DNA of 64,000 nucleotides, from positions 1 to 64,000 of IMG/VR virus record IMGVR_UViG_3300030330_006692; one strand, written 5' to 3'. Below, piece by piece: positions 1-21,962 of the stretch. The DNA comes from a virus (lineage: Duplodnaviria > Caudoviricetes). Below the pieces are notes generated by a model that searched no databases, had not been told where the DNA came from, and saw only the letters and a program-made list of their open reading frames with translations. The position numbers and the translations under genes are program-made. Numbering within the stretch: the stretch's first letter is position 1; each line of letters begins with the position of its first letter.

Positions 1-1
1 A

Positions 2-172
2 GTAGGTGATATTGTTAAACGTTTTCTTACCGATCAGTTCGGCATCGTGCTGGACATCAAGCCGCTTGGTTCTATTCATGTGATGTGGACTACACAGGGC
101 GACTCGTTGTTCGGTCCTGGTAGCAAAGAATGGTGTGATGAAAGAAGTTTGGAACTCCTGACATCCTCTTGA
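2..172 (+). CDS. 5'-truncated small SH3/KOW-like protein (VGDIVKR...GIVLDI...VMW...LELL)
   Basis: Hand translation of frame 2; same VGD(I/L)V...GIV...W...LE pattern as many neighbours; stop TGA 170-172. Confidence 0.7.
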   Translation, partial: VGDIVKRFLTDQFGIVLDIKPLGSIHVMWTTQGDSLFGPGSKEWCDERSLELLTSS

Positions 173-232
173 CAACTAATCACTTGCGAACCTCGCTCAC
201 CTATGCTATATTATATAGGTAATCAAGGAGAA
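158..232 (+). promoter_or_regulatory. Early promoter cassette copy 1
   Basis: CTGACA 158, TTGACA 169, -35 TTGCGA 184, TG-c-TATATT 204-212 (17-bp spacer), AAGGAG RBS. Confidence 0.85.
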
Positions 233-236
233 CTAC

Positions 237-1115
237 ATGTCATACAATGGAACCGTCCGCTGCTCTTACTGCTTCCAAACTGGTCACAACAGGCGCACTT
301 GCCCTGAGCTTAGTGAAGCCACTGCGCGCCTGTGGCGCAACGCCAAGAGCAGCTACGATCGCATGGTTAAGGAAGGTAAGACCGAGATGTCCGACATGTA
401 CAAGTCGCGTATGCAAAGCTATGCCGACCGCTACGCAACGCGCACCGGCAAGGATGTCGCGACTGGCGAAGATATTGTCATGACTAAGGAGACCAAGAAA
501 GCAGCCAAGGCAAAGCGACTGAAGAACATCCGCTGCTCGTACTGTGGCAACACTGGACACACGCGCCGGACCTGTCAGGATCTAAAGGACGACAGGCAAG
601 TTTACCTCAAGGCTGTCCTTGACAAGCGGATTGATGCTCTGAACAAAATGCGTGAGCTTGGTGTCGGTGTCGGCTCGCTCGCCAAGATGCAGCGGTATGG
701 CTACTGGCCAGACAAGGAGAACGGTGGAACCACTTGGGGTTCTCGCCTGCGCCCGATGTTGCTGAGAAACATCAACTGGTCAGCGATTCTCCCGCACAAT
801 GACAGGTTGACCAACCTGTACCACTTTCACGATGCTGCACAGCTTTGCGGCGATGGGGATCACTACTCTTGGACCGACGAGGGCTACAACTTTGCTGCCG
901 ATGCTGTGGAGAACGGCTCTCTTACTCCATCTGGAACCATCAATCCGCCCGATGGCTGGTTTGAGGGCAAAGATGTTGACATGTCATATGTCTTCCCTCC
1001 GGGCAAGCTGCGTGACTGGGCTTTCCGCGATGCTCATCAGAGGATCCTCAATGACGATCCCCCACAGAGCCATAACACCGAGCTTTACAAGGCTCGCAAG
1101 TCGCTGGGGATCTAA
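237..1115 (+). CDS. Protein with two CCHC zinc knuckles
   Basis: CSYCFQTGHNRRTC and CSYCGNTGHTRRTC = CX2CX4HX4C; RBS and promoter upstream. Confidence 0.8.
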   Translation: MSYNGTVRCSYCFQTGHNRRTCPELSEATARLWRNAKSSYDRMVKEGKTEMSDMYKSRMQSYADRYATRTGKDVATGEDIVMTKETKKAAKAKRLKNIRCSYCGNTGHTRRTCQDLKDDRQVYLKAVLDKRIDALNKMRELGVGVGSLAKMQRYGYWPDKENGGTTWGSRLRPMLLRNINWSAILPHNDRLTNLYHFHDAAQLCGDGDHYSWTDEGYNFAADAVENGSLTPSGTINPPDGWFEGKDVDMSYVFPPGKLRDWAFRDAHQRILNDDPPQSHNTELYKARKSLGI

Positions 1116-1197
1116 CAATCCCCTTGACATTCTCTTTACAACTTATCCCTTGCAATCTCTGTTCCCCCATGCTATATTATATAGGTAATCAAGGAGA
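1112..1197 (+). promoter_or_regulatory. Early promoter cassette copy 2
   Basis: CTAACA 1112, TTGACA 1124, TTTACA 1135, -35 TTGCAA 1150, TGcTATATT -10 at 1173, AAGGAG. Confidence 0.85.
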
Positions 1198-1203
1198 GAA
1201 CCA

Positions 1204-1689
1204 ATGAAAGTTCGCAACGCCATCAAGAAAGTCAAATCCCACTTCGCCAAGCAAGGCATCGACATCGATGTGCAGCTTATTGGTCATCGCTGGACATTTG
1301 TTCACAACGGCTATGTCGGCTCGTTCCTCGCCAACGGTGCCTGCACCGATGAGGATCAGATGGACGCCGACGCACACAACTTCCACGTGCGCCGTGAGAA
1401 TGACCATAGCTGTCTGTACTCCGACTATCATGCTGGCTCGTTCCGTGATAACATCACGCAAGTTTGTGAGAGTCTGTTGCCGCCTGCGCCTAAGTTCGCC
1501 GTCGGCTCACTCGTGCGAGGCAAGCAGAACAAGCGCGCAATGCGCCAGGGCTACGCTGGCAAGGTGGGTCTTGTGGTGCCGAATGGTACGGGCAGTAGCC
1601 GCTATGCTAAGGTGGCTTGGGTTGGTGAGGCTCAACCTAAGTGGGGCTGGGCGACTTATCCAGAGCGTGACCTTGAATTGGTTAGTTGA
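1204..1689 (+). CDS. Hypothetical early protein with C-terminal SH3-like module
   Basis: C-term KFAVGSLVRG...VGLVV...VAW...DLELVS; RBS upstream. Confidence 0.75.
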   Translation: MKVRNAIKKVKSHFAKQGIDIDVQLIGHRWTFVHNGYVGSFLANGACTDEDQMDADAHNFHVRRENDHSCLYSDYHAGSFRDNITQVCESLLPPAPKFAVGSLVRGKQNKRAMRQGYAGKVGLVVPNGTGSSRYAKVAWVGEAQPKWGWATYPERDLELVS

Positions 1690-1752
1690 CAAATCGCTTG
1701 ACATTTCCCTGACAACAAAATACTTGCACTAAATGACATCCCATGCTATATT
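1686..1752 (+). promoter_or_regulatory. Early promoter cassette copy 3
   Basis: TTGACA 1686, TTGACA 1698, CTGACA 1709, -35 TTGCAC 1724, TGcTATATT -10 at 1747. Confidence 0.85.
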
Positions 1753-1798
1753 TATAGAGTAAGGCAAAGAACTAACACCCTCAACACTGGAGCCCAAC

Positions 1799-2887
1799 AT
1801 GGCTATCGACTTCGCAACATTCCTCAACGTCGCCCCTCACATCCTCAACAGCAAGCTGCCTGTACTTATCCGTGGTCGCCACGGTGTCGGCAAGTCCGAG
1901 GTGGTCTACCAGATCGCCGCAACTCGCGACCTGCCTGTGGTCGAGCGCCGCGCTTCTCAGATGACCGAGGGTGACCTTCTTGGTTTGCCCGATGTGGCTG
2001 ACACGTCCATCAACGGTCGCAAGGCTACCACTTGGAACGCGCCTGACTGGCTTGTAACCGCTTGTGAACAGCCTGTCCTTCTCTTCCTCGATGAGGTGGA
2101 CCGCGCGACCATGGAGGTCCGTCAGGGTCTCTTCGAGTTGACCGACAGCCGCAAACTGAACGGCTGGCACCTCCACGCCGACACCCTGATCGTCGCTGCC
2201 GTCAACGGCGGTGAGCACGGCGCTCAGTACCAAGTTGGCGAGATGGACCCAGCCGAGCTTGACCGCTGGACCGTCTTCGATGTCGAGCCTTCCACCGAGG
2301 ACTGGCTCAAGTGGGCTAACGATCGCGTGCCGTCGGTCGTTTGGGACTTCATTAATCACAACCGTAAGCACTTGGAGCACGAGGGTGACTTCGAGCCTAA
2401 CAAGGTCTACCCTTCCCGTCGCTCATGGAAGCGATACTGCGACACCGCAGAGCCCGCGGGTGTGTTCGGTGAGGACGGAGACCGCGATCTTCTCTTCAAC
2501 CTTGCGACCGCGTTCCTTGGTTTCGAGGCTGCTGTGTCCCTTCGTGACTTCGTTGAGAAGTACGAGTGGCAAGTGACCATTGAGGATATCCTTGACCTTG
2601 GAGACTTCTCCAAGACCGACAAGTGGGGCATCAACGACCACGCTGCTATGATTGAGAAGTTTGAGGCTTCTGGAGTCTTCAAGGATGATCTCGCTGAGAC
2701 TCAGGTCGGTAACCTTGCCGAATACTTTGTATCTCTGCCATCAGAGATCGCCATGAAGCTGTGGACCGTTCTCGGTGACACCGATAACATCAACAATGTT
2801 GTGGCTCTGCACAAGGCGGAGACCACCGACGGTCGCCGGGTCTCCGATCACCTTGTCGAGATCCTTGGTGGCAACACTGAAGACTAA
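1799..2887 (+). CDS. MoxR-type AAA+ ATPase
   Basis: Walker A GRHGVGKS, Walker B LLFLDEVDR, AAVN sensor, DPAELDRW Arg-finger. Confidence 0.9.
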   Translation: MAIDFATFLNVAPHILNSKLPVLIRGRHGVGKSEVVYQIAATRDLPVVERRASQMTEGDLLGLPDVADTSINGRKATTWNAPDWLVTACEQPVLLFLDEVDRATMEVRQGLFELTDSRKLNGWHLHADTLIVAAVNGGEHGAQYQVGEMDPAELDRWTVFDVEPSTEDWLKWANDRVPSVVWDFINHNRKHLEHEGDFEPNKVYPSRRSWKRYCDTAEPAGVFGEDGDRDLLFNLATAFLGFEAAVSLRDFVEKYEWQVTIEDILDLGDFSKTDKWGINDHAAMIEKFEASGVFKDDLAETQVGNLAEYFVSLPSEIAMKLWTVLGDTDNINNVVALHKAETTDGRRVSDHLVEILGGNTED

Positions 2888-2889
2888 TC

Positions 2890-3129
2890 ATGTTTCATCG
2901 ACTACCGCCGATTGACCGTGACCCGGAGGTGGGTGACCTTTGCAGGCTCAATGGAGCCGAGGGTCAAGCCCATCGCTTCCGCGAAAAGCATGGTGTTGGC
3001 ATGATTGTCAAGAAGCACGTGATTAGTGAGAACTCCAGAGCAGTTCAGTACGAGATTAAATGGCTGAAAAGCGAGGAACACATGAGGTTTTTCAAAGATG
3101 ACATCTTTATCATCTCAGACGTGGACTGA
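2890..3129 (+). CDS. Small SH3-like protein
   Basis: EVGDLCRL...GVGMIVKK...YEIKW. Confidence 0.65.
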   Translation: MFHRLPPIDRDPEVGDLCRLNGAEGQAHRFREKHGVGMIVKKHVISENSRAVQYEIKWLKSEEHMRFFKDDIFIISDVD

Positions 3130-3322
3130 TAGGCTAGAAATCGGTGACTTGGTGTTCGCTGTCAGAGATGGCAAGCCCGGTATAGTGCTTGACAAAGAAG
3201 AGATGGCACAAGCCAAATACGGCGACATAGCGAACAAGCGATGGAGGTTCAGGCTTCACATCGACGGAGAGCAAGGGTGGTTAGACGAGGTCCGCATGAG
3301 GACCGGATACAGGATCCCTTGA
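3098..3322 (+). CDS. Small SH3-like protein
   Basis: LEIGDLVFAVRDGKPGIVLDK; start uncertain. Confidence 0.6.
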   Translation: MTSLSSQTWTDRLEIGDLVFAVRDGKPGIVLDKEEMAQAKYGDIANKRWRFRLHIDGEQGWLDEVRMRTGYRIP

Positions 3323-3388
3323 CATTTCCTTGACAACTAAAACCTTGACTTTGCCCCTCCACGATGCTATATTATATATGTAAGGAGA
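3319..3388 (+). promoter_or_regulatory. Early promoter cassette copy 4
   Basis: TTGACA 3319, TTGACA 3330, -35 TTGACT 3345, TGcTATATT -10 at 3368, AAGGAG. Confidence 0.85.
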
Positions 3389-3394
3389 AAGAAC

Positions 3395-4633
3395 ATGTCC
3401 GACGACAAGACCACCAAGCCCTTCAATCTCAACATGCACACTGCTCGCCTGCTCATGCGCGAGCCGTTCTTCGCTGCTCTGTCTCGTCGTATTGACAAGA
3501 TTGAGTCAACTGCGATTCCTACCGCTGGTGTCCGCGTCAACCCTGACTCCGCTCAGTTTGAACTGATGTACAACCCTGAGTTCTTCGCTGCGCTCTCCGA
3601 CGAGCACAAGCAGGGTATCCTCATGCACGAGTTCTACCACCTTGTATTCGAGCACGTGACCAGCCGCAAGCCTGCCGATGGTCTTAAGCGCATCGACAAC
3701 ATTGCGATGGACCTCGCTATCAACTGCCACATTTCCAAGATGCTGCCAAGCGAGTCCAACCCTGGTCCAGAGATCAGCGGTGAGCCCATGCAAGCATGTA
3801 TCCCAGGTGAGGGCATGTTCAAGGATCTTCCTCCTTACAAGACCTACGAGTGGTATCTTGAAGAGCTTAAAAAGATGCAGCAAGAGCAGCAACAAGACGG
3901 CGACGGCGAGGGTGGTCAAGGCAATGGTGACCCTTTTGGTAACATGGACTCCCTTGACTCTCACGATGAGTTTGGCGATGTGGATGGCACGACCCAAGAG
4001 ATTGCCAGTGAGCGCATGAAGGAAGCTATCAAGAAAGCAGCAGAGGAAGCTGAGAAGTCCCGCAACTGGGGCTCCGTGTCCTCCACCATGCGCCAAGACA
4101 TCATGGAGCGCATTGCGACTAAGGTTGACTGGCGCAAGGTTCTTCGATACTTTGTCAAGACTTCACAGCGCGCCGACAAGCGTTCGACGCCTCGTCGTCT
4201 CAATAAGCGGTTCCCAAAGGTCCACCCTGGCAAGCGCGTCCGTCGCCAAGCTAAGATCGCCGTGTCCATCGACCAGTCTGGCTCTGTGGACGATGCGATG
4301 CTCGCCGCGTTCTTCTCCGAGTTGAACAAGCTGGCAGAGATCGCAGAGTTCACCGTCATCCCCTTCGACACCGCGGTAGCCGAGAGCAAGATCTATACAT
4401 GGAAGAAGGGTCAGAACAAGAAGACTGAGCGTGTTCTCACTGGTGGTACATGCTTCAACGCTCCTACCAAGTACGTCAACGAGAAGGGTTTCGATGGTCA
4501 CATCATCCTGACAGACCTGATGGCTCCTAAGCCAATCCCGTCCAAGTGCCAGCGCATGTGGATGACCACTAAGAACTACGCAGCGCGCCCGTACTTCACA
4601 ACTAACGAGCGGATCATTGCCATCGACGGTTGA
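3395..4633 (+). CDS. Metallopeptidase-like + VWA domain protein (DUF2201-type), partner of the MoxR ATPase
   Basis: HEFYH zincin motif, Q/G/D-rich linker, VSIDQSGS MIDAS, GGT, ILTD. Confidence 0.85.
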   Translation: MSDDKTTKPFNLNMHTARLLMREPFFAALSRRIDKIESTAIPTAGVRVNPDSAQFELMYNPEFFAALSDEHKQGILMHEFYHLVFEHVTSRKPADGLKRIDNIAMDLAINCHISKMLPSESNPGPEISGEPMQACIPGEGMFKDLPPYKTYEWYLEELKKMQQEQQQDGDGEGGQGNGDPFGNMDSLDSHDEFGDVDGTTQEIASERMKEAIKKAAEEAEKSRNWGSVSSTMRQDIMERIATKVDWRKVLRYFVKTSQRADKRSTPRRLNKRFPKVHPGKRVRRQAKIAVSIDQSGSVDDAMLAAFFSELNKLAEIAEFTVIPFDTAVAESKIYTWKKGQNKKTERVLTGGTCFNAPTKYVNEKGFDGHIILTDLMAPKPIPSKCQRMWMTTKNYAARPYFTTNERIIAIDG

Positions 4634-4700
4634 CATTTTACTGACACTTTTAGCCTTGATTGTTGAGTCGATCAGTGCTATATTTAATAGACAAAGGAGA
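4630..4700 (+). promoter_or_regulatory. Early promoter cassette copy 5
   Basis: TTGACA 4630, CTGACA 4641, -35 TTGATT 4656, TGcTATATT -10 at 4679, AAGGAG. Confidence 0.85.
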
Positions 4701-4706
4701 GAGATC

Positions 4707-5039
4707 ATGCCCGCAGACTTCACACCCCGCACTAATGACGATGTTATCGCCAAATGGATGGATGGCGTAAGTGCCCGTAATCACAGCAGAACTTTGAAGA
4801 GTGTGGCTTGGGATGATGGCTATGCTGACCTGTACAGCTATGAGCTAAAGATCGGTTCTCGGACTCCAACGGGTTCACTGATCGTTGCGGACTACACAGC
4901 GCCAGCCGGAGGGTTCCAGTCAATGACCACTTCTCAGCACGTCAATCTTGCCAAGGTTCACGCTTGTCGCGAGGGCGCACTCGTAATGCATCCTCTGGTC
5001 TGGGAGGCTTCCGCTCTGAGTGATGAGGTTCCATTCTAG
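4707..5039 (+). CDS. Hypothetical early protein (start corrected to MPADF)
   Basis: ATG 4707 follows the RBS; the upstream in-frame extension runs through the promoter. Confidence 0.75.
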   Translation: MPADFTPRTNDDVIAKWMDGVSARNHSRTLKSVAWDDGYADLYSYELKIGSRTPTGSLIVADYTAPAGGFQSMTTSQHVNLAKVHACREGALVMHPLVWEASALSDEVPF

Positions 5040-5242
5040 TGAGTAGGTTTAAGCCGGGTGATCTTGTGAAGGTCAAAGATGGAACGCACCAAGATGGCAT
5101 GCCTGCTCACCGGGTCGGCATGGTCATCGAGGAAGGCGAGACTTCAAAGTCATACTCTAAAGCGTACACGATCATATTTCTCGGCACTGACCTGCACTTA
5201 AAGTTTCATGAGACATTCTTAGAACCCTTTACAACCCATTGA
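5039..5242 (+). CDS. Small SH3/KOW-like protein
   Basis: FKPGDLVKVK...VGMVIEE...YTIIF...LEP. Confidence 0.75.
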   Translation: MSRFKPGDLVKVKDGTHQDGMPAHRVGMVIEEGETSKSYSKAYTIIFLGTDLHLKFHETFLEPFTTH

Positions 5243-5299
5243 CATCTTAAACCTTGACGATCGCTCTCAGGCGGTTATATTATATGTGTAGAAAGGAGA
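5228..5299 (+). promoter_or_regulatory. Early promoter cassette copy 6
   Basis: TTTACA 5228, TTGACA 5239, -35 TTGACG 5254, TATATT 5276 (16-bp spacer), AAGGAG. Confidence 0.8.
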
Positions 5300-5305
5300 A
5301 AACAC

Positions 5306-5500
5306 ATGCTTGCTATTCCACTCATCCGCACCGACACCGGCGATAGCCTGACACCCATCGAGCGCACCACACTTGCCTGCGAGCAGGTTGTTACTGCTCT
5401 GATGATGCAGGCTACCCTTGACGATCCGCAGATCACTGAACAGGAGCGCGAGACATACACAACCTTGTCCGTCGCTACCATCATTCCAGCAGAGGCATAG
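5306..5500 (+). CDS. Hypothetical early protein
   Basis: ORF directly after promoter and RBS. Confidence 0.7.
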   Translation: MLAIPLIRTDTGDSLTPIERTTLACEQVVTALMMQATLDDPQITEQERETYTTLSVATIIPAEA

Positions 5501-5671
5501 ATGACTGCTTTTGAGATCAAACTCTACAACGAAAAGACGCGCCGGTATCACTTTCTAGCGATGGTCGATGCCGAGAGTAAGGATGAGGCTCTTCAAAAGT
5601 TTATCAATCGCAACAAATATAAGGCGAAGCCCGGTTTTCACCTCTTTGTCAAGACTCCAGGGTGTCTATAA
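5501..5671 (+). CDS. Small hypothetical protein (56 aa, not in ORF track)
   Basis: Hand translation MTAFEIKLYNEK...KTPGCL; abuts upstream stop, TAATG coupling to next gene. Confidence 0.65.
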   Translation: MTAFEIKLYNEKTRRYHFLAMVDAESKDEALQKFINRNKYKAKPGFHLFVKTPGCL

Positions 5672-6006
5672 TGGAACTACCTATCAAAGTAACATGGCCG
5701 CCAATGCTTTACACTGACCGATCCGGTCAAAAGTGGGCTGTTTCTGGTCAGTTCTGGCTCCCAGTGGGCGAGACCGCTACGCTTGACTCCATTGACGATG
5801 TGATGGTTTATGAGCCTCGTAAAGCCTCTCCAGAGCCTTCTAACGTACAGTCTTGGAAGGTCCAAGGCAGTACTGGCAAAAGCTATACAGTGAGCTACGA
5901 TGGGCATGTATGGCGATGTACGTGTGCTGGCTTCGGGTGGCGTCGTAAGTGTCGCCATATCACGGAGAAGATGCACCAGAGCGCTGACAAGTCCTTGACA
6001 ACTTAA
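5671..6006 (+). CDS. SWIM zinc-finger protein
   Basis: VQGSTGKSYTV...WRCTCAGFGWRRKCRH (CxC...CxH). Confidence 0.8.
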   Translation: MELPIKVTWPPMLYTDRSGQKWAVSGQFWLPVGETATLDSIDDVMVYEPRKASPEPSNVQSWKVQGSTGKSYTVSYDGHVWRCTCAGFGWRRKCRHITEKMHQSADKSLTT

Positions 6007-6056
6007 ACCTTGACTTCTACCCGTATCGGTGCTATATTATAAGGGTAGAAAGGAGA
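5984..6056 (+). promoter_or_regulatory. Early promoter cassette copy 7
   Basis: CTGACA 5984, TTGACA 5995, -35 TTGACT 6010, TGcTATATT -10 at 6033, AAGGAG. Confidence 0.85.
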
Positions 6057-6060
6057 AACG

Positions 6061-6165
6061 ATGCAACTTAATCGTGTACTTACCGCAGCCATCGCCGCCG
6101 ATGCCATTTGTATGGGCGCTCTGGTATTTTTCGCAATCCACTGGTTTCAGTGTCCGACAGCATAG
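6061..6165 (+). CDS. 34-aa hydrophobic peptide
   Basis: MQLNRVLTAAIAADAICMGALVFFAIHWFQCPTA directly after RBS. Confidence 0.65.
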   Translation: MQLNRVLTAAIAADAICMGALVFFAIHWFQCPTA

Positions 6166-6174
6166 GAGATAAAA

Positions 6175-6567
6175 ATGTCTGATATTCTAAACATCCGAGT
6201 AACCGAGCGCGAGCTTGACCTTATTATGGACCTACTTCACGAGGCTGGTCTTCGCACTGATGCGGACGGACAGCCCGCAATCGAGATTTGCCACGATCTG
6301 ATGGAGCAAGCCGGTCGCGAGGTCGATGAGTGGGAGTCTACCGATCTTGACGGTCGCACTTTCACTGTCGCAGAGGATCACTTCATCGATCTCGGCATGC
6401 GAGCCCGTGAGATGCGCAAGGCTGAGAAGATGGCGCGCGGTGTGTCAATGGCTGCCGATCGGCGCGCTCATCGCTTCGGTGAGTTTAGCGTCGATGATCC
6501 TAATGATCGCTCTGACCAGCAGCGCGTTGACGTATGGGAACGCCCCAACGACCCAACGAAGTGGTAA
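6175..6567 (+). CDS. Hypothetical early protein
   Basis: AGGAG RBS, intact ORF. Confidence 0.75.
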   Translation: MSDILNIRVTERELDLIMDLLHEAGLRTDADGQPAIEICHDLMEQAGREVDEWESTDLDGRTFTVAEDHFIDLGMRAREMRKAEKMARGVSMAADRRAHRFGEFSVDDPNDRSDQQRVDVWERPNDPTKW

Positions 6568-6571
6568 GTAT

Positions 6572-6682
6572 ATGTGGTTATTGACTTTTTTGCTTGCTGC
6601 CGTTATCGAGGGTGTCCGAGATAACATCATTCTTGCCATTGAACATATCAAGGCTGACGTTGACAACTACTTGACAACTTAA
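6572..6682 (+). CDS. 36-aa hydrophobic-N-terminus peptide
   Basis: MWLLTFLLAAVIEG...NYLTT fills the gap, stop inside cassette copy 8. Confidence 0.45.
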   Translation: MWLLTFLLAAVIEGVRDNIILAIEHIKADVDNYLTT

Positions 6683-6736
6683 ACCTTGCAAACCCCCTCA
6701 CCCTATGTTATATTATAAGTATAGAAAGAAAGGAGA
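6660..6736 (+). promoter_or_regulatory. Early promoter cassette copy 8
   Basis: TTGACA 6660, TTGACA 6671, -35 TTGCAA 6686, TGtTATATT -10 at 6709, AAGGAG. Confidence 0.85.
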
Positions 6737-6743
6737 ACATTCT

Positions 6744-7085
6744 ATGCCGTCAACTCTTGTAAAATCTTATGTTACTCGTCTTCGCAATGCTGCCACTCGC
6801 CTCGATGCACAGCAGGTGATGCAGATTTGGCACGAAGCAGGACTCAACGAAACTCTTGGCGTCTCGGGCGTAGTCCAGATTCATCAGGCTAAGGGTGTTT
6901 CTGATATGATCTTTCATGCTAATCAAGCATGCCAAAAAATCAAGCTACAGCATTTGAACCCAAGCACTGAACTGCCGGAGTTGTCTGAACTTAAAAAGGA
7001 CGAACTCATCCGTCTTTGTAAGTTGCGTTCGGTTGGAGGATATTCTAAGCTGAACCGTGGACAGCTAATCGAGTTGTTGTCATAG
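6744..7085 (+). CDS. Protein with C-terminal Rho-N/SAP-like helical module (start corrected)
   Basis: LSELKKDELIRLCKLRSVGGYSKLNRGQLIELLS resembles Rho N-terminal domain. Confidence 0.7.
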   Translation: MPSTLVKSYVTRLRNAATRLDAQQVMQIWHEAGLNETLGVSGVVQIHQAKGVSDMIFHANQACQKIKLQHLNPSTELPELSELKKDELIRLCKLRSVGGYSKLNRGQLIELLS

Positions 7086-7087
7086 CC

Positions 7088-7160
7088 CTGACATCTTCTT
7101 GACAACTTAATCCTTGCGATCCGCTGCCCCCTATGTTATATTATAAGTATAGAAAGGAGA
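7088..7160 (+). promoter_or_regulatory. Early promoter cassette copy 9
   Basis: CTGACA 7088, TTGACA 7099, -35 TTGCGA 7114, TGtTATATT -10 at 7137, AAGGAG. Confidence 0.85.
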
Positions 7161-7167
7161 TAGTTCT

Positions 7168-7341
7168 ATGATTGAAGTCGGAAGCGTAGTTAAGAGCAAG
7201 TATCTGGTCAGTGGTCACGTTGCCCGCATTGGTCTAGTGACGAAGACTGTTGGAAAGCTCGCAGAGGTATTCTGGCCACATAGCCGGTCAAAGGGCTGGG
7301 TCAAGTGCGAGGACATGGAGGTGATCAATGCAAGTCGGTGA
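7168..7341 (+). CDS. SH3-like micro-protein 1 of tandem array (57 aa)
   Basis: MIEVGSVVKSK...IGLVTK...EVFW...DMEVINASR; not in ORF track. Confidence 0.8.
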   Translation: MIEVGSVVKSKYLVSGHVARIGLVTKTVGKLAEVFWPHSRSKGWVKCEDMEVINASR

Positions 7342-7486
7342 TTTGGTTGTGCAGGTAGGCTGGGAAGCTGACGGGGCAGGTATTGTCCTCAGCACCCGCG
7401 CCCAACGCTATGCTACTGTTTTGTGGCCCGGTGGAGAAGTGGAAATGCTACTCAGCGATCTGGAGGTGATCAATGCAAGTCGGTGA
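7328..7486 (+). CDS. SH3-like micro-protein 2 (52 aa)
   Basis: MQVGDLVVQV...AGIVLS...TVLW...DLEVINASR; GGAGG RBS. Confidence 0.8.
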   Translation: MQVGDLVVQVGWEADGAGIVLSTRAQRYATVLWPGGEVEMLLSDLEVINASR

Positions 7487-7628
7487 TCTGGTAAGCAGCA
7501 ACGGGCATTTGGCAATCGTGATATGCGTCAATGCCTATGAGACATTGATTAAGTGGTTCGATGATGGCATCGTTGAGGATGCCGACAACTATGGGACATC
7601 GCTGGAGGTGGTTAGTGCAAGTCGGTAG
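7473..7628 (+). CDS. SH3-like micro-protein 3 (51 aa)
   Basis: MQVGDLVSS...LAIVIC...LIKW...SLEVVSASR; GGAGG RBS. Confidence 0.8.
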   Translation: MQVGDLVSSNGHLAIVICVNAYETLIKWFDDGIVEDADNYGTSLEVVSASR

Positions 7629-7788
7629 TTTGGTCCGTGAGACTATGGATGGTAACATCGGGATCATCGTGGCGTGGGAAAATGACGGTTGGCTTGTCAA
7701 CTTCCCAAAACACGGCATGGTCTTCCATATGTTGCCGAGACTACTGGAGGTAGTTGACAACTCTCTTGACATTCTCTTGACAACTTAG
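7615..7788 (+). CDS. SH3-like micro-protein 4 (57 aa, GTG start)
   Basis: MQVGSLVRE...IGIIVAW...WLVNF...LLEVVD; GGAGG RBS. Confidence 0.8.
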   Translation: MQVGSLVRETMDGNIGIIVAWENDGWLVNFPKHGMVFHMLPRLLEVVDNSLDILLTT

Positions 7789-7841
7789 TTGTTGACTTTC
7801 GCCTCTCCCGGTGTTATATTATAAGTATAGAAAGAAAGGAG
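7754..7841 (+). promoter_or_regulatory. Early promoter cassette copy 10
   Basis: TTGACA 7754, 7766, 7777; -35 TTGACT 7792; TGtTATATT -10 at 7815; AAGGAG. Confidence 0.85.
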
Positions 7842-7849
7842 TTTATTCT

Positions 7850-8185
7850 ATGCAACGCGCTATCGACCAAATCAAGATCCAAACCACTCGTCAATACAAG
7901 CCAGCGCCAGCGCCTCCAACTCGGAAGCAACTGCAAGGCTGGACTGTCGAGCAGGTTGGCCCGCAGATGTGGGTTGTCTTCCGTCACTCCTCCACACAAG
8001 GCAAGCAAGCTGTGATGGACTTCCCCGATCCTTCATGGGCTGAGTCATTCGCTGCTGGCTGCAACGCCGAGTACTCAAACCCTACCAAGATGAGCGCCAA
8101 GAGCCTGAAGCGCAAAGATGCTAAGTACCTGACCGATGCCGAGAAGGCTGACCTCGCTGCGCTTGAAGCCGGCGAGGGCATTTAG
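7850..8185 (+). CDS. Hypothetical early protein (start corrected to MQRAI)
   Basis: ATG after RBS of cassette 10. Confidence 0.75.
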   Translation: MQRAIDQIKIQTTRQYKPAPAPPTRKQLQGWTVEQVGPQMWVVFRHSSTQGKQAVMDFPDPSWAESFAAGCNAEYSNPTKMSAKSLKRKDAKYLTDAEKADLAALEAGEGI

Positions 8186-8189
8186 AAAT

Positions 8190-8432
8190 ACACCTACTTA
8201 ACCCGTGAACGCGCAGAGCGCGAGAGGTAGAAGATAATGAAAACCCCCAACTACATAGCGCCGGTAACTGTGGCGGGCTTGGTTTAGTCACAGAGGGACA
8301 TGTTCAACCCTAACCAAGAGAACGATAAAATGCGATAGCGATACCTCCAATGCTCAGAGAGGTTAAAAGAGCAGATTAACAAAATGAGACAACTCGAAAG
8401 GGGCGCGAGTATAAACAAAGATCCCCTTTTTT
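8190..8432 (+). ncRNA. Candidate structured non-coding RNA or leader
   Basis: ORF-free gap with several hairpins (CGCGC/GCGCG, CGCC/GGCG, CTTGGTT/AACCAAG, TGCTC/GAGCA, GAGGTA/TACCTC) ending in AAAGGGG/CCCCTTT+T-tract. Confidence 0.35.
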
Positions 8433-8458
8433 CAATCAATCGTTTCGAGGATTACAAT

Positions 8459-8860
8459 ATGACACGTACAGCTTTTCCATCGCCTGCTAACATCCGGCGT
8501 CAAACTCCTGATGAACTATTTGGCAGGGATGCAAAACATTTGTTTAACAACCTGACTAAAGAGTTCGAGAAGAAGGCGAGCAAAGGATCAACAAATCAAA
8601 GTATCTTGATCCGTCGTCGTGGTAGCTGGGGCAGAACCGCAGCAGCTTGGATCGAGTGGCACCAACGAAGTCAAGAACAAAGACAATACTCGATTGATTA
8701 TTGCAATCAAAAGCTATCAACAACCGGCTGGCGCGTCAATGATCTTACCTTTAGAAAGGTTCCCGAATATGTTGACTCGTGGTATAAAAACAATAACGAC
8801 ATGTGGGCGATCATTGTTGAAATGGAATACACGTGTGACGATGCGTGTGCAGCTAAATGA
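8459..8860 (+). CDS. Hypothetical protein (start corrected to MTRTA)
   Basis: GAGG RBS before ATG 8459. Confidence 0.65.
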   Translation: MTRTAFPSPANIRRQTPDELFGRDAKHLFNNLTKEFEKKASKGSTNQSILIRRRGSWGRTAAAWIEWHQRSQEQRQYSIDYCNQKLSTTGWRVNDLTFRKVPEYVDSWYKNNNDMWAIIVEMEYTCDDACAAK

Positions 8861-9174
8861 AATACTACATCTCCCAAACTATTGTTGAACTCGTTGACGG
8901 TCGCCTGACTGGTAGAGAAGTAGTGTTGACACGTGCCGATGCTAAGGTAGACAAAGATGGCGCGAGACTACAAAATGTTAAAATGTTCATGCACAAGTTA
9001 AAGGCGCTGGGTATCCCTAACCTTCACATAAACAAATATGAGAAGAAGCGTTATAATAAACTTGTCCGAGAACAGAACAAGATTAGAAAAGATAAAAAGC
9101 TAACTGTTGCCGATCTTGCGAAGATGGAACAGCAAGCTACAGAGTTACAATCCAATCATCAGGGAGGTGAATAA
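8857..9174 (+). CDS. Hypothetical basic protein
   Basis: Overlapping-start coupling, intact ORF. Confidence 0.7.
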   Translation: MKYYISQTIVELVDGRLTGREVVLTRADAKVDKDGARLQNVKMFMHKLKALGIPNLHINKYEKKRYNKLVREQNKIRKDKKLTVADLAKMEQQATELQSNHQGGE

Positions 9175-9326
9175 TGGAGTTTGTAAGTGCCATGTTTGTA
9201 ATGGTGGGTGCGGCGGGTATTCCGTTTTTGATTAACCGAGCAATCGGAGAGTTAAAAGGTATTCGTAATGTTTTGGAACAGGTTGCAACCGATCCCAAAG
9301 ACATGAATGTAATGGAGACTAAGTAA
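9174..9326 (+). CDS. 50-aa membrane peptide
   Basis: GGAGG RBS, TAATG coupling; MEFVSAMFVMVGAAGIPFLI... Confidence 0.6.
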   Translation: MEFVSAMFVMVGAAGIPFLINRAIGELKGIRNVLEQVATDPKDMNVMETK

Positions 9327-9332
9327 ACAATA

Positions 9333-9524
9333 ATGTCCGATAGTGTTAGATCGTTTAGAGTCGGAGAGTTAGTAAAAAGAAAACATACTTCAGTATCTTC
9401 TAAGGGCTTTTGTGTAGTCGTCGAGAATGACGGAGATAACTACGTTTTATATAATAACTCACTTAAATGTTTACAGAAGATTATGTGTACAGTAGTAGAG
9501 AACATGTATATAAAGCACACATAA
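9333..9524 (+). CDS. Small SH3-like protein
   Basis: FRVGELVKRK...GFCVVVEND. Confidence 0.65.
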   Translation: MSDSVRSFRVGELVKRKHTSVSSKGFCVVVENDGDNYVLYNNSLKCLQKIMCTVVENMYIKHT

Positions 9525-9741
9525 GTTTGTTTATGTGCATTAAACTGTATATGTTTTCTATTTGTGGCTTTACGTGATTGTCTGACAGTCGTTAAACTGT
9601 TAAGTAGTATACTATTGTTTTATAATATGTTTGCAAATGTGTTTAGTTTGTGCTTGGAGTTTAGTACATATACGTTCTATCGCCAACTGTCAAGGTATTT
9701 ATCGTGTCAAGTCATATTCTGTCCGCATTTGTGCGCGTTCC

Positions 9742-9819
9742 TTGACATAGATTTGACATTTGACTGCTTGACATTCAAGGCGCGAGGGTGTATAATATAG
9801 GTATAGTAAGCAAAGGAGT
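9742..9819 (+). promoter_or_regulatory. Early promoter cassette copy 11 (perfect sigma70 consensus)
   Basis: TTGACA 9742, TTGACA 9753, -35 TTGACA 9768, -10 TATAAT 9791, AAGGAG. Confidence 0.85.
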
Positions 9820-9824
9820 GTACT

Positions 9825-9911
9825 ATGACATGGGAAACAGAACAAAAGGTTTACGATTGCTTGGGTGCTGTCATGTGGACGGCTATGCTTTACCTGCTTA
9901 TGGCATACTAA
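9825..9911 (+). CDS. 28-aa hydrophobic peptide
   Basis: MTWETEQKVYDCLGAVMWTAMLYLLMAY after strong promoter and RBS. Confidence 0.55.
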   Translation: MTWETEQKVYDCLGAVMWTAMLYLLMAY

Positions 9912-10220
9912 CACTATATGCGAGACACTACCCGTAGTGTGTCAGTGCATGATTGTTTAGCGAATCCCTAGGGGAGTATAACATACACACACTACATGTA
10001 GGGATTGCATGCGCGAGAATACATAAACGAATACAGTTTAATAATACAATAACTGTTTAGGCTGGAGGGAAATGAAGCCGAGACTAAAACAAATAATAAA
10101 AAGAGTAGGAGAAACCTGCACAATCGTCGTGTGCTATGCACCAATAGTATTATACGTATACAGTTATGTAATAGTAGATTGTATATGTAATAAGACTGCA
10201 AACAAATGTGATAAATGATA

Positions 10221-10420
10221 TTGACATACATTTAACATTCGTTGATTGTTCAGTTTCAAACTGCACTATGGGGTACCCCCCTCCCCCCTACCCCGGATAG
10301 TATGTCACGGTAATCTGACATGTCCCTGACATGCGGGTATAGCCTGTTTTCGATCGCGCCTAAAAATTTTGAGATTATCAGTTCTTTAAAAAACCGCCCC
10401 AAAAAATTTCCCCAAAGTAT
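10221..10420. other. Non-coding junction (possible genome terminus, pac site or origin)
   Basis: CAGTTT-C-AAACTG 10251-10263, palindrome GGGGTACCCC 10270-10279, C-tracts, TGACA pairs 11 bp apart (10221/10232; 10315/10326), A/T tracts; boundary of composition and promoter type. Confidence 0.45.
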
Positions 10421-10445
10421 ATACCTTGTGGGATACCAAGAACGG

Positions 10446-16627: not shown

Positions 16628-19074
16628 TAATGCTCGATGATGAACAAATTCTAGAAAAAACGACTGCATTACTGGACATTTTACAAGAAAAATGCTGGGA
16701 TGGATATAAAGAAGTCGGTTTAAAGAAAAAAGGTAACCGAATGGTGCCTAATTGTGTCCCTGTCAACGAAAAAGTGCTCCGAGAAGTCACTGAAGACGAG
16801 ATGCGAGTGCTTGAAGACGTATTGGATGATCTAAATCCAGCAAATTTGCCCCTAAATGATCTTTTTAGCAACAAAATGCGTGTTGTTATACCATTTCCAA
16901 CCACCGATCCAGATTCAGAGCTTGGAAAATTTGCAGAATTCTTCAGATCTCAAGAATATGACGTAGATTGGGAGAAAGGTATGGTATACGCCGAGCGTGA
17001 TATGCGCACATCCGACGATTTACTGGGTATGTTAACGGGAGAACCCGAGCCAAAGAAGAAAATCAAGAAGATTCAGATGAAAATTGGGAAACTTTTCGCC
17101 AAAATAGCCGATTTAAGCAGAAAAAAAGACGCATTATACCAAAAAGTCTACAAACACATGGCTGATATCAACTATAAGTTGGCGGATGGTGAGCCGGTTA
17201 GAACGCCCGGGCGAACCACTTTGAAAATGGTTAAAGCAGCTCTTGATGAAAAAGAATATGAGAATTTCGAAAGAATTAACAAGCAATTGTACACATACGT
17301 CGTAAATCCAGGCACAGCGGGATCTGCAGGCTACGATATGACTGATTTAGCTACCGAATATGGACAATATTGGCAAAAAAACGCCGCATTCATCAAAAAA
17401 GAGATAAATAACCTCGATAATGACAAATATTCTATTATTATTACTCGACATCCGATAGATGTGCTCAGAATGAGTGATTTTGACACGATTACCTCTTGTC
17501 ACTCTCCAGCTAGTCGCCAAAATGCCTATCAATCCTACTATAAATGCGCTGTAGCCGAGGCTCAGGGGCATGGAGCGGTAGCATACGTGGTTGAGACAGA
17601 AGAGCTTCTGAGCGCCACTAACACGGGTAATATAAACAGTGCAGAGCAAGAAATTCAAGAAGGTGAGATATTTGCTGACGATAAACGCCCATTTACCGGT
17701 GATATTGAGCCAATTTCTCGCACACGCATCCGTCATGTTAGATATTATGAAGGTGACGAGCCTCCAAAGCGCTATGATGACGGACAAGACGTTGGAATGC
17801 CCGAAAAACGCGTCTATGGTATGGATATTCCCGGTTTAGTTAATACAGTTACTGATTGGGCGAGATCAAACCAAGAAGAAGTCATCGCAAACATGCCAAA
17901 AAATGATAATGGCATTATTGATCTTAATAAATTTATGATTTTTGGTGGCTCTTACGAAGATACTGCAAATGCTGCTGGTCGTGAAAGATTAATGAGACAG
18001 TTATTGGGTGCACAAGCTCTCGTTAGCGGCAACATGAAGCAAAACACAGATACCGAAGATGATCTTGACGCCAATTTAGTTGGCGATATTATCGCACAAT
18101 ACGAAGGTGAGTGCGAAGAAATAATGAATGAGTACAATAATAGGATGGCTCAAACATATTCTGATTATGAAGTTCAAGATGATGGTGCCGATAGCGCCTA
18201 TATTAGACCTTTTGCTGCGTTTATTGCTAAGTGGCCGATTGATGAGTGGAAAAGACTGCCCGGCAACAATGAAGAAGTTGTTTGGAACTCTGTCGATGAG
18301 GTTATTGCGATATATGGTGACATATTTGAAGACTCCAACAACTATACACCTGTTATTCGTCGTGTTCGTGAAGAAATACATTTAACCATGAAGGTTAATT
18401 TTGAGCATCCTGACATTTATGGCAATGGCTATATGGCTATGCCAGACGAATACAGAGAAGCACTTGAAAACATTGATGTGATAATCGACGACAGAAGAGA
18501 TCAATTTGAAGCTGTTCTCACTGATTATTTCAAGCGTGAAGGGCAAATGGAAGGCGGCGAGTTTATAAATTTAGCCATCGCGATTGAAGATGGTGTACTC
18601 TCATCTTATGAGTGGGATCTCGAAACTGATGGACAATACTCCGAGTCGTATGAGTGTACAGCACGCTACACGCATTACTACGATCCAGAAGATTTAGGAT
18701 TGGGAATTGAGGTACTAAAACAGATTGTTGATTCTCGCGATTTTAGAATTGAATTGAGAAAACAGCTCTTAGAGGCGCCGAGAAAAGAGCAGAATACACA
18801 ATATTACTTAAATATGGATGCTCAGACGATCGAACAAGGTGTGCCCGGTGCTAGAGAAATAAATATGACTGTTGAATTCTCGATTAATGCTGATGCACCT
18901 GATATTATGACTGGTTTGTTTGTAGAGCTTGTAGAGGGTGAGATGGACGATGAAGACAACCTTAAGGTGGTATTTAATAGAGTATTGGCTCAGTTTGTTA
19001 ATTCTCGCAAGCCTGCGTTTATGCAAACAAACGAATCGATTGTTAGTTCTTGGAAGGACTATTTAAAATCATGA
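16621..19074 (+). CDS. Large hypothetical phage protein
   Basis: 817-aa ORF with CWDGY..G.KKKGNRMVPNCVP motif common in T4-like phages. Confidence 0.75.
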   Translation: MVIMLDDEQILEKTTALLDILQEKCWDGYKEVGLKKKGNRMVPNCVPVNEKVLREVTEDEMRVLEDVLDDLNPANLPLNDLFSNKMRVVIPFPTTDPDSELGKFAEFFRSQEYDVDWEKGMVYAERDMRTSDDLLGMLTGEPEPKKKIKKIQMKIGKLFAKIADLSRKKDALYQKVYKHMADINYKLADGEPVRTPGRTTLKMVKAALDEKEYENFERINKQLYTYVVNPGTAGSAGYDMTDLATEYGQYWQKNAAFIKKEINNLDNDKYSIIITRHPIDVLRMSDFDTITSCHSPASRQNAYQSYYKCAVAEAQGHGAVAYVVETEELLSATNTGNINSAEQEIQEGEIFADDKRPFTGDIEPISRTRIRHVRYYEGDEPPKRYDDGQDVGMPEKRVYGMDIPGLVNTVTDWARSNQEEVIANMPKNDNGIIDLNKFMIFGGSYEDTANAAGRERLMRQLLGAQALVSGNMKQNTDTEDDLDANLVGDIIAQYEGECEEIMNEYNNRMAQTYSDYEVQDDGADSAYIRPFAAFIAKWPIDEWKRLPGNNEEVVWNSVDEVIAIYGDIFEDSNNYTPVIRRVREEIHLTMKVNFEHPDIYGNGYMAMPDEYREALENIDVIIDDRRDQFEAVLTDYFKREGQMEGGEFINLAIAIEDGVLSSYEWDLETDGQYSESYECTARYTHYYDPEDLGLGIEVLKQIVDSRDFRIELRKQLLEAPRKEQNTQYYLNMDAQTIEQGVPGAREINMTVEFSINADAPDIMTGLFVELVEGEMDDEDNLKVVFNRVLAQFVNSRKPAFMQTNESIVSSWKDYLKS

Positions 19075-19517
19075 AATTGTTAATTGAAAATTGGCGAAAG
19101 TTTGTTACAGAAGCAAAAAACTTAATTTGCCCACCTGCTACACAAGATTTAGAACTTAACACAAAGAATCGAGATTCAGCTATTCAAGCTGAACATATTC
19201 AATATGGGCCTCTTAACGTAGATGAGCCCGGTGACTTTTGGGAAGATATTGCAGACTATTGGAATACTGATGTTGAAGCTGCCTTAGCCTCTCGTTGTGG
19301 TAATTGTACCGCATTCGATATATCGCCGCGTATGAAAGAGTGTATGCCGGGTGAAACATCTGATAACGATGGAGAACTTGGATACTGTTGGATGCATCAT
19401 TTTAAATGCCATTCAGCCCGTTCATGTAGAACATGGGCGAAAGGTGGGCCAATTGAGGATAACGATGTATCAGCTGATTGGCAAGAAAGATCCAACATAG
19501 GAAAAGATAATGAGTAA
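19071..19517 (+). CDS. Cys-rich hypothetical protein with LIENWRKF leader (start corrected)
   Basis: RCGNC, YC..HHFKC...RSC; ATGA coupling. Confidence 0.7.
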   Translation: MKLLIENWRKFVTEAKNLICPPATQDLELNTKNRDSAIQAEHIQYGPLNVDEPGDFWEDIADYWNTDVEAALASRCGNCTAFDISPRMKECMPGETSDNDGELGYCWMHHFKCHSARSCRTWAKGGPIEDNDVSADWQERSNIGKDNE

Positions 19518-20646: not shown

Positions 20647-20999
20647 TGTTTCCTTTATTTTTTGAAAATAGTAAGATACCTGTTTGGTTATCCAAACTTG
20701 CTCCAATTGAAATAAATGCGCTAAGTTTTTTTATCTTTGTTTTCTCACGAGGTGAGATGGATGAGAGAGTTCGTAGACATGAAACAATTCATTACAAACA
20801 GCAAGTTGAAATGTTGTTTATATTTCAATGGATTATGTATGCTTATTTTCATGTTAAAGGTTTGTTGACTGGTATTAAAGGTTCTGAAGCTTATTATAAA
20901 AATCCATTTGAGTTAGAAGCATACGATAATGACGAAAAAGAGAACTATTTAAATAAAAGAAAGCATTATGCTTGGATAAAATATTGGAGAGAAATATGA
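20646..20999 (+). CDS. Small zincin-like (HExxH) membrane protein
   Basis: RHETIH.KQ..E; NPFELEAY. Confidence 0.65.
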   Translation: MFPLFFENSKIPVWLSKLAPIEINALSFFIFVFSRGEMDERVRRHETIHYKQQVEMLFIFQWIMYAYFHVKGLLTGIKGSEAYYKNPFELEAYDNDEKENYLNKRKHYAWIKYWREI

Positions 21000-21961
21000 A
21001 ATATTTAATGGAAAACTGGCGTGGATATATGCAAGAAAGCAAAAACGCAGCGATTTATGGGGATTTATATCTTTTTGAAGAAGACAATATCTCAAAAATA
21101 TCATTCTATGATGCGATTAGTGTACTTTCAGAATCGGATGACGATGCAGACAGATTTTTAGAAAACTGGGAACGCTCAGTTGAATATATGCTTGAGAATA
21201 TCAAGCTTAACGAACAAAGCTCAGGCTCTGTTCTTGATGACGCTGTTTTAAAAGCCTCAACTCAAGCATATATGGCGATAGCGAAGCTGAAGGGCAAAGC
21301 AGTCGCGCCAGTTATTAATGTCATGAAAAAACTGAAGTCATTTGAGCAAAAGAATCCAAAGACTGCAAAAGCTCTAAAGTTCACTCTTAAGGGTTTGGCA
21401 GTAGCAGTCGCCACAGCTGGCTTATCGACGGCATTAGCCAGCGGTGGTGGGCCAGAAGAGATACAAGCTGTTGCTGACGCTTTGGCATCAGTGGCGCCTG
21501 ACGTCGCAGATGGTGTTGCGCAAGTGGCCCAAGCTGATGGTACCGAATACGTTGAGGTAGCTAAGCAGGTAGTCTCCAATCAAGAGCAAGCTCTTTCACA
21601 AGTTTCGGATGCGTTGTCACAATCTGGTGATCCTGGACTACAACAAGTCGGAGATGCCGCAGAAAATACAGAACGAGTGTTTACTAGTTTTCGAGATATG
21701 TTGGAGGCTGAATATCAAAAGGGCGAGCTTGAAAGCCTCTTTGCTTGGGACGACTGGCCAGAAACCACAACACCAGAACAACAGCAGAAAGCAGTGGACA
21801 TGGGAATCATCTCTCCGGAAGAACTTGCACGTGAACTCGGAGATACCGCCCAGAAGGATGCTCGCGGGCTTGAGTTGCCAGTCGATTCTGGTAAAAAATA
21901 CACCAATATTATGGATATGGTGAAAGATCTAGAAGCCGCAAAAGACGCAAAGAAAAAATAA
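20996..21961 (+). CDS. Ala-rich protein with LMENWR leader (possible internal virion protein)
   Basis: GGAG RBS before ATG 20996; hydrophobic Ala-rich middle. Confidence 0.65.
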   Translation: MKYLMENWRGYMQESKNAAIYGDLYLFEEDNISKISFYDAISVLSESDDDADRFLENWERSVEYMLENIKLNEQSSGSVLDDAVLKASTQAYMAIAKLKGKAVAPVINVMKKLKSFEQKNPKTAKALKFTLKGLAVAVATAGLSTALASGGGPEEIQAVADALASVAPDVADGVAQVAQADGTEYVEVAKQVVSNQEQALSQVSDALSQSGDPGLQQVGDAAENTERVFTSFRDMLEAEYQKGELESLFAWDDWPETTTPEQQQKAVDMGIISPEELARELGDTAQKDARGLELPVDSGKKYTNIMDMVKDLEAAKDAKKK

Positions 21962-21962
21962 C

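Follow-up and report, generated by a model that had tools for sequence, protein, structure and literature searches.

What kind of element ends the gene in front of it and appears to start the gene behind it, and why should a phage carry eleven copies of it? The question is raised by the early region of a virus (Duplodnaviria; Caudoviricetes) known as IMG/VR record IMGVR_UViG_3300030330_006692, of which the first 64 kb (64,000 nucleotides, herein the window) of 96.5 kb were analyzed. An earlier reading of the letters of the window (the original prediction) proposed a self-contained joint of stop codon, promoter, and ribosome-binding site (RBS) that lets open reading frames (ORFs) be gained, lost, or shuffled, by analogy with the PeSL cassettes of T4-type phages. 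The analogy is apt, and the definition of PeSLs in phages RB49 and phi1 already begins with an upstream stop codon, followed by an upstream region, a sigma70 promoter, a stem-loop, a Shine-Dalgarno site, and ATG (Arbiol et al. 2010, PMC2839356). Comparison with related loci indicates that the repeated element is probably a mobile early-promoter cassette of PeSL-like type, carried by a clade of marine myoviruses that are uncultured and have genomes of ~200 kb.

The 11 cassettes of the window lie on the same strand at 158 to 9827, inside the first 9.8 kb, and none occurs elsewhere in the 96.5-kb record; the eleventh (Table 1) lies beyond the range of the original prediction. With the first base of the −10 hexamer as reference point a, from which box and stop offsets are counted, every window copy has box B at a−48, box C at a−37 (11 bp apart), and the −35 hexamer at a−23; the downstream part comprises a 17-bp −35/−10 spacer, TGnTATATT, a Shine-Dalgarno site, and ATG. 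AAGGAG or GAAAGGAG, then an ATG 27 to 52 nt past the −10 start, is present in 11/11 copies, and an independent consensus scan calls a sigma70-like promoter for 10 of them. Two copies (those with a at 1747 and 7815) have a third box, A, which stands 12 bp before box B and shares its frame because the spacing is 12 rather than 11 bp.

For comparison, 29 related loci from independent marine metagenomes were retrieved by a search with the metallopeptidase/VWA protein of the window (3395 to 4630). A cassette profile gives 237 hits over the window and these loci, 100% of them on the gene strand, with 5 to 17 copies in most loci. The consensus of 174 distinct copies in the clade is c.ctTGACATtt.CTTGACAa.tta..ccTTGAc-N17-TATATT, its −10 being preceded by an extended element (TTGAC-N17-(TG)nTATATT). 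The boxes are closer to TTGACA than is the true −35: They are near-perfect TTGACA or CTGACA, with TGACA in 84% (B) and 89% (C) of copies, whereas TTGACT and TTGACG predominate at the −35. Of 152 cassettes, 52% have a spacer hairpin of −2 kcal/mol or below, and the mean of −2.46 kcal/mol, still that of a weak hairpin, compares with −1.43 kcal/mol for shuffled sequences (p = 1e-7). In the window, a hairpin of any kind is seen in only four to five of the 11 copies, and one (5259 to 5276) passes a terminator-like scan; as the hairpin is short, weak, and missing from half of the copies, a terminator function is doubtful.

Nine of the 10 upstream ORFs in the window end inside the element, as had been predicted, and a check against the sequence, the ORF list, and a coordinate script reproduces every coordinate given for these stops. 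Two ORFs end at the TGA of box C, two at that of box B, one at that of box A, and one at a TAA in the box A position (CTAACA); the other three use the TAA or TAG (TAR) of TTG-ACA-ACT-TAR (Table 1). Each box holds a TGA and the spacing of 11 bp is 2 modulo 3, so two frames are stopped, and the frequent TAR, at a−29, stops the third. The part of the original prediction that placed these three stops in three different frames therefore stands, but closure of all three frames does not extend to every copy: Of the 11 window copies, five (a at 5276, 6033, 6709, 7137, and 7815) close three frames, another five close two, and the last closes one. Clade-wide, 174 distinct cassettes include 85 with three closed frames and 83 with two.

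The regularity holds across the clade. In a first set of 156 distinct cassettes from the 29 related contigs, each preceded by an open frame of at least 40 codons, the upstream stop falls in box B (70), box C (26), or TAR (18); others stop within 14 nt before box B (~29), further upstream (5), or at the TAA of the −10 region (4), to which ORFs run on when the third frame is open. Thus, 73% stop at B, C, or TAR, and ~93% are counted as ending within the element. A motif scan of IMG/VR yielded a replicate set of 50 stretches, many from contigs of 185 to 205 kb, with 134 new cassettes; here, the stops are at box B (66), box C (23), TAR (3), just upstream (26), or far upstream (6), which amounts to 69% at B, C, or TAR and 88% within the element. 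Stops more than 25 nt before box C are rare in both sets (5/156 and 6/134), and the pattern is far above chance. If each pairing of an upstream family with a stop site is counted once in the first set, 74 remain, of which 55% fall at B, C, or TAR, a further 30% immediately in front of B, and 7% farther away upstream. What is truly regular, therefore, is that no spacer separates genes from the cassettes behind them, so that upstream ORFs read into the boxes and end at the first in-frame stop.

To which neighbor does the cassette belong? Cassettes that share the downstream gene but not the upstream one resemble each other as closely as full orthologs do, with identities of 0.78, 0.55, and 0.71 over boxes, spacer, and the segment past the −10; the corresponding values when only the upstream gene is shared, 0.73, 0.44, and 0.60, hardly exceed the 0.67, 0.38, and 0.52 of unrelated pairs. 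All-against-all blastn places 30% of the left ends of homology blocks at a−66 to a−40, with a sharp peak at box B, against 3.2% expected under uniform placement, and left ends occur at a rate of 4.2 per junction with a cassette and 1.4 per junction without one. The heritable unit is therefore boxes, promoter, RBS, and downstream gene(s). The left border of this mobile unit, as located by the alignments, is the first box, exactly where the upstream ORF stops; a border that stops the upstream ORF in a fixed frame pattern explains the recurrence of short C-terminal tails on unrelated proteins.

These tails (LTT, LTSS, and LTTA, each followed by the stop) are coded by the boxes. The original prediction had proposed asking whether homologs elsewhere lack LTT, and homologs that are not followed by a cassette do lack it. 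The VWA protein ends in IAID[GSAV] throughout; before a cassette its stop is the box B TGA, and where no cassette follows, a TAA or TAG of its own comes after the same residue. Small SH3-like proteins end in LEVISESR when another gene follows and in LVDDSLTT or LLTSP before a cassette. The SWIM-like family stops at TAR in the window, at box B in two loci (L013 and L029), at box C in a third (L019), and at its own stop elsewhere. As many as 14 upstream families use more than one stop site; genes and cassettes have therefore been joined on many occasions and in more than one frame. Annotation should accordingly treat C-termini such as LTT as artifacts of the junction, not as motifs, and place the true starts of downstream genes past the cassette.

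Gene content in the cassette region differs among the 18 non-redundant relatives. We searched for direct-repeat indels, recognizable by a segment of genome A that has two alignments in genome B, one on either side of extra DNA, and obtained 11 distinct inserts of 210 to 900 bp; in 10 of the 11, one cassette in A corresponds to two in B that surround an insert of one to a few genes. Locus L023, for example, has a 49-codon ORF between two cassettes with a common unusual spacer, and this ORF stops at the box B TGA of the right-hand cassette; in a base-by-base comparison, the single cassette of L022 matches the left copy of L023 in its left part and the right copy in its right part. Similarly, cassette 10 of the window (a at 7815) corresponds to two cassettes in L011 (7323 and 7628) around a 305-bp gene, and cassette 4 (a at 3368) to two in L023 (5510 and 5735) around a 225-bp insert. 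Four different contents occur in the slot between the two cassettes that precede the AAA ATPase gene. Five loci have an empty slot of 104 bp, in which box B closes a mini-ORF of 8 codons, and three (L023, 3757 to 3843; L024, 8088 to 8173; L025, 4249 to 4334) have a tRNA-Leu(TAA) with its own cassette promoter; the slot is occupied by the slot gene of Table 1 in the window and by another, unrelated gene in L011. The tails, the families with several stop sites, the inheritance of the cassette with its downstream gene, the cassette-flanked indels, and the variable slot all back the proposal of a portable joint of stop, promoter, and RBS.

The boxes themselves are retained at the DNA level: Unrelated genes run into them in each of the three frames, which also rules out a coding-level explanation of their conservation. 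The stop triplet is kept when it is not in use (box B, 75/86; box C, 126/130; 87 to 97%), and box variants that keep the stop through a G-to-A change (TAACA) are no commoner than those that lose it through G-to-T (TTACA). Since boxes unused as stops are equally conserved, the stops seem to have been exploited as a by-product of a motif kept at the DNA level. Measured from the inferred transcription start, the boxes are centered near −58 and −47, with one turn of the helix between them. This placement fits contact with RNA polymerase or a regulator, and on its basis the boxes most likely do one or the other. On the opposite strand, they form TGTCA direct repeats with an 11-bp period, which we take to be reminiscent of PhoB/OmpR-type boxes, albeit in the opposite orientation and at a different position; possibly, the boxes place every early gene under a PhoB/OmpR-type response regulator of the host.

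Several results weigh against a PeSL-like mobile cassette built around its stops. Only about half of the cassettes close every frame, and the stops are probably, for the most part, not the selected function of the boxes. The upstream stops of PeSLs lie in an AT-rich region, and their stem-loop is found most often between −35 and −10 (PMC2839356); here, the AT-rich region is replaced by the ctTGACATtt.CTTGACAa boxes, which give TGA in fixed frames and short tails, and the stem-loop that defines PeSLs is weak and present in only about half of the copies. The affiliation with T4-type phages is itself weakly indicated, by a baseplate wedge protein ~30% identical to proteins of Flavobacterium and Microcystis myophages. 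At the level of genes, three tests gave no significant excess, with 59% of adjacencies broken at cassette junctions and 56% elsewhere (permutation p = 0.17 to 0.27); predecessor diversity was 0.60 with a cassette and 0.50 without (p = 0.22), and a 56-codon ORF (5501 to 5671) comes and goes at junctions that have no cassette. Candidate cassette-to-cassette joints in Logan contigs (four runs), which break at the cassettes, were considered as circles or deletions; they had sides of 18 to 43 nt with extra letters between them and were rejected as artifacts of repeats or relatives. The expectation that gene-content breakpoints would map to cassettes is thus upheld by 10/11 direct-repeat indels and by the homology-block ends, but not by the gene-level adjacency tests; other joints therefore exist, and cassettes are important but not the sole ones. 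One such joint may be found at 7168 to 7788, where four overlapping SH3-like micro-genes are joined by a 26- to 32-bp repeat holding stop, RBS, and start. Judged from its sequence, this overlap repeat is a second, cassette-free kind of recombination joint, and it probably explains why cassette-less junctions appear equally plastic in the gene-level tests.

The null adjacency results would be expected if the cassettes were ordinary strong early promoters with an upstream regulatory array, whose spacers had been lost by deletion bias and which had no special role in gene gain or loss. Such a by-product of compaction also accommodates the equal conservation of used and unused boxes, the similar frequency of stop-keeping and stop-losing variants, and the ORFs that run on to the −10 region. 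We consider it fairly unlikely, because it leaves unexplained the 10 indels with a cassette at both borders, whose duplicated cassettes have a common unusual spacer, as well as the ninefold excess of homology-block starts at box B and the cassette-bounded slot with its four contents. The sharpness of that peak, with fixed-phase direct repeats at the left border of every mobile unit, might instead point to integron-like, site-specific exchange in which the TGACA boxes are recognition sites for a recombinase. This is scarcely credible: Block ends at −55, −6, and +5 to +35 show crossovers scattered along the cassette, duplicated cassettes are full length, as homologous recombination predicts, and no recombinase turned up among the 10 early-region proteins scanned.

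Other alternatives concern the stops. They might be a selected bumper, the 11-bp phasing and TAR being kept to end translation in every frame and so to protect the portability of the module, and not only for DNA binding. TAR is indeed present in 18/23 cassettes where the ORF needs it against 36/133 elsewhere (Fisher p = 5e-6; 6/9 against 17/65 after orthologous junctions are collapsed, p = 0.02), an enrichment that is partly circular, as ORFs without TAR are scored as ending elsewhere, and that we regard as a weak hint of selection for a stop; closure of three frames in half of the cassettes points the same way. Yet 11 bp is one helical turn, as expected of a phased protein-binding array, the other half of the cassettes leave a frame open, unused boxes are equally conserved, and substitutions show no bias toward preserving stops, which makes such selection quite unlikely. 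It is likewise unlikely that the phased TGACA array goes beyond a binding site upstream of a promoter and has evolved as a universal joint whose spacing of one helical turn combines DNA binding with a stop in every frame (TGA, TGA, and TAR). If it had, a promoter-gene module could land behind any ORF without a read-through fusion, and selection for evolvability would be written into a regulatory element. Finally, the occurrence of identical tails on unrelated proteins could suggest that these tails function as C-terminal peptide tags, such as signals for degradation or targeting. The same DNA, read in three frames, gives different tails or none, 45% of ORFs end tail-free at box B, and cassette-less homologs end at the same conserved residue without a tail; tags are therefore extremely improbable.

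Returning to the mobile promoter cassette, the comparative signatures are observed, and to them we add, by inference, promoter activity (from sequence), a DNA-level role for the boxes, and a recombinational mechanism. The unit runs from box B over 11 bp to box C, often a TAR, a sigma70 −35, 17 bp, TGnTATATT, Shine-Dalgarno site, and ATG; it is inherited together with the downstream gene(s), for which it presumably acts as the promoter, and its boxes would be retained by their DNA-level function. The upstream ORF receives no tail (at box B) or a short cassette-coded one (LTSS or SLTT). Homologous recombination between cassette copies would insert, delete, and move units of one to a few genes, and the built-in stops would end any new upstream neighbor within at most ~10 codons.

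Samples containing the phage include runs X1 and X2, which have 87% of the sequence words. Megablast of positions 1 to 8200 against GenBank phages gives no match, and tblastn of the VWA protein finds only relatives of 24 to 30% identity, among them jumbo phages of Bacillus and Vibrio, so that an annotation cannot be read from any cultured relative. A PhoH gene is present. GC content is 52% at positions 1 to 8185 and 39% from 8186 on, the cassette-bearing region being ~10 GC points richer, and each of the 18 non-redundant relatives (L007 to L025) has the step at this gene junction; it is therefore a feature of the clade, and its conservation in 18 independent contigs rules out an assembly chimera. 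Directly behind cassette 1 lies a conserved early protein (237 to 1115) with two CX2CX4HX4C zinc knuckles (Pfam zf-C2H2_10, E = 1e-9), a candidate nucleic-acid binder. A MoxR-like AAA ATPase (AAA_5) and a DUF2201 metallopeptidase/VWA protein (1799 to 4633) form a conserved pair, each with its own cassette, and are the backbone of an otherwise plastic region. Around cassette 11, AT-rich stretches (9524 to 9740 and 9900 to 10440) lack a convincing ORF, and a C-rich run lies near 10270 to 10295. Elsewhere, three unrelated genes have a common start of ~49 nt (19065 to 19113, 20990 to 21038, and 21957 to 22005) with an N-terminal MK.L.ENWR motif.

Table 1. Cassettes of the window and the gene slot between cassettes 2 and 3 (element positions are those of the first base; tails are given without the stop)
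Feature	Positions	Strand	Elements	Neighbors and remarks
Cassette 1	158..239	+	box B CTGACA 158, box C TTGACA 169, −35 TTGCGA 184, −10 TATATT 207, ATG 237	upstream ORF ended by TGA 170-172 in box C, tail LLTSS; cassette also found by nhmmer profile and promoter scan
Cassette 2	1112..1206	+	CTAACA at box A position 1112, box B TTGACA 1124, box C variant TTTACA 1135, −35 1150, −10 1173, ATG 1204	zinc-knuckle gene 237-1115 stops at TAA 1113; one frame closed only
Cassette 3	1686..1801	+	box A TTGACA 1686, box B 1698, box C CTGACA 1709, −35 1724, −10 1747, long leader, ATG 1799	TGA 1687 (box A) ends upstream gene; ATG starts AAA ATPase gene
Cassette 4	3319..3397	+	box B 3319, box C 3330, −35 TTGACT 3345, −10 3368, ATG 3395	TGA 3320 (box B) ends ORF 3098-3322; metallopeptidase/VWA gene downstream
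Cassette 5	4630..4709	+	box B 4630, box C CTGACA 4641, −35 4656, −10 4679, ATG 4707	VWA gene ended by box B TGA 4631
Cassette 6	5228..5308	+	box B variant TTTACA 5228, box C 5239, TAA 5248, −35 TTGACG 5254, −10 5276, ATG 5306	TGA 5240 (box C) ends ORF 5039-5242; spacer hairpin 5259-5276; three frames closed
Cassette 7	5984..6063	+	box B CTGACA 5984, box C 5995, −35 6010, −10 6033, ATG 6061	SWIM-like gene 5671-6006 ended by TAA 6004, tail KSLTT; three frames closed
Cassette 8	6660..6746	+	box B 6660, box C 6671, −35 6686, −10 6709, ATG 6744	36-codon ORF 6572-6682 (weak gene call) ended by TAA 6680, tail YLTT; three frames closed
Cassette 9	7088..7170	+	box B CTGACA 7088, box C 7099, TAA 7108, −35 7114, −10 7137, ATG 7168	ORF 6744-7085 ends at its own TAG 7083, 5 nt before box B, the sole exception; three frames closed
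Cassette 10	7754..7852	+	box A 7754, box B 7766, box C 7777, −35 7792, −10 7815, ATG 7850	last micro-gene ended by TAG 7786, tail VVDNSLDILLTT, 12 residues from three boxes; three frames closed
Cassette 11	9742..9827	+	boxes 9742 and 9753, perfect TTGACA 9768, N17, TATAAT 9791, ATG 9825	low-GC DNA; no clear upstream gene
Slot gene	1204..1689	+		bounded by cassettes 2 and 3; homologs elsewhere in L008, L009, L016, L019, L024

For phage evolution, the clade offers a concrete, testable system for the exchange of small early genes. What appears to be new is a mobile unit of cassette plus downstream gene whose left border is the first box, with the upstream ORF stopped in a fixed frame pattern; the literature searched contained no description of phased TGACA boxes or of the three-frame stop arrangement. 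Around the upstream positions that the boxes occupy, sigma70 promoters are bound by alpha-CTD or class I activators, and UP elements are A/T-rich. The boxes lie at the same positions as such sites (−58 and −47), also one turn apart, but copy the −35 hexamer instead of an A/T-rich sequence. Integron gene cassettes (attC) resemble the present ones in forming arrays of one-gene units bounded by a repeated element; here, in contrast, every unit brings a promoter of its own, an imperfect palindrome of the attC type is missing, and the borders look like those of homologous recombination between direct repeats. No integrase was found among the proteins scanned, and identity with integrons was rejected.

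The closest parallel remains the PeSL of RB49 and phi1, which likewise sits in hyperplastic regions and mediates the excision and insertion of ORFs (PMC2839356). Both elements are repeated in a hyperplastic early region and comprise a stop, a near-consensus sigma70 promoter with N17, a Shine-Dalgarno site, and ATG, and in both a one-gene unit between two copies corresponds to a single chimeric copy in a relative; the spacer stem-loop seen here in about half of the copies is also at the commonest PeSL position. The host and the phage clade differ, and the excision of mini-circles is a feature of PeSLs, whereas the present case is built on sequence comparison. PeSLs have been described in three pairs of cultured T4-type phages (PMC2839356, PMC4122927), the variants of T4/PST and KVP40/nt-1 having lineage-specific sequences (Comeau et al. 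2014, PMC4122927). In the PeSL/PmSL elements of the latter two pairs, the stem-loop lies just upstream of the promoter, and neither a phased box array nor three-frame stops have been described. Degraded or duplicated −35-like copies near indels have been ascribed to recombinational slippage (PMC4122927), and the rare box A, 12 bp before box B, may by analogy with those phages be a slippage scar. With 300 distinct cassettes and 10 cassette-flanked indels, the PeSL principle appears, with different parts, in an abundant uncultured marine clade.

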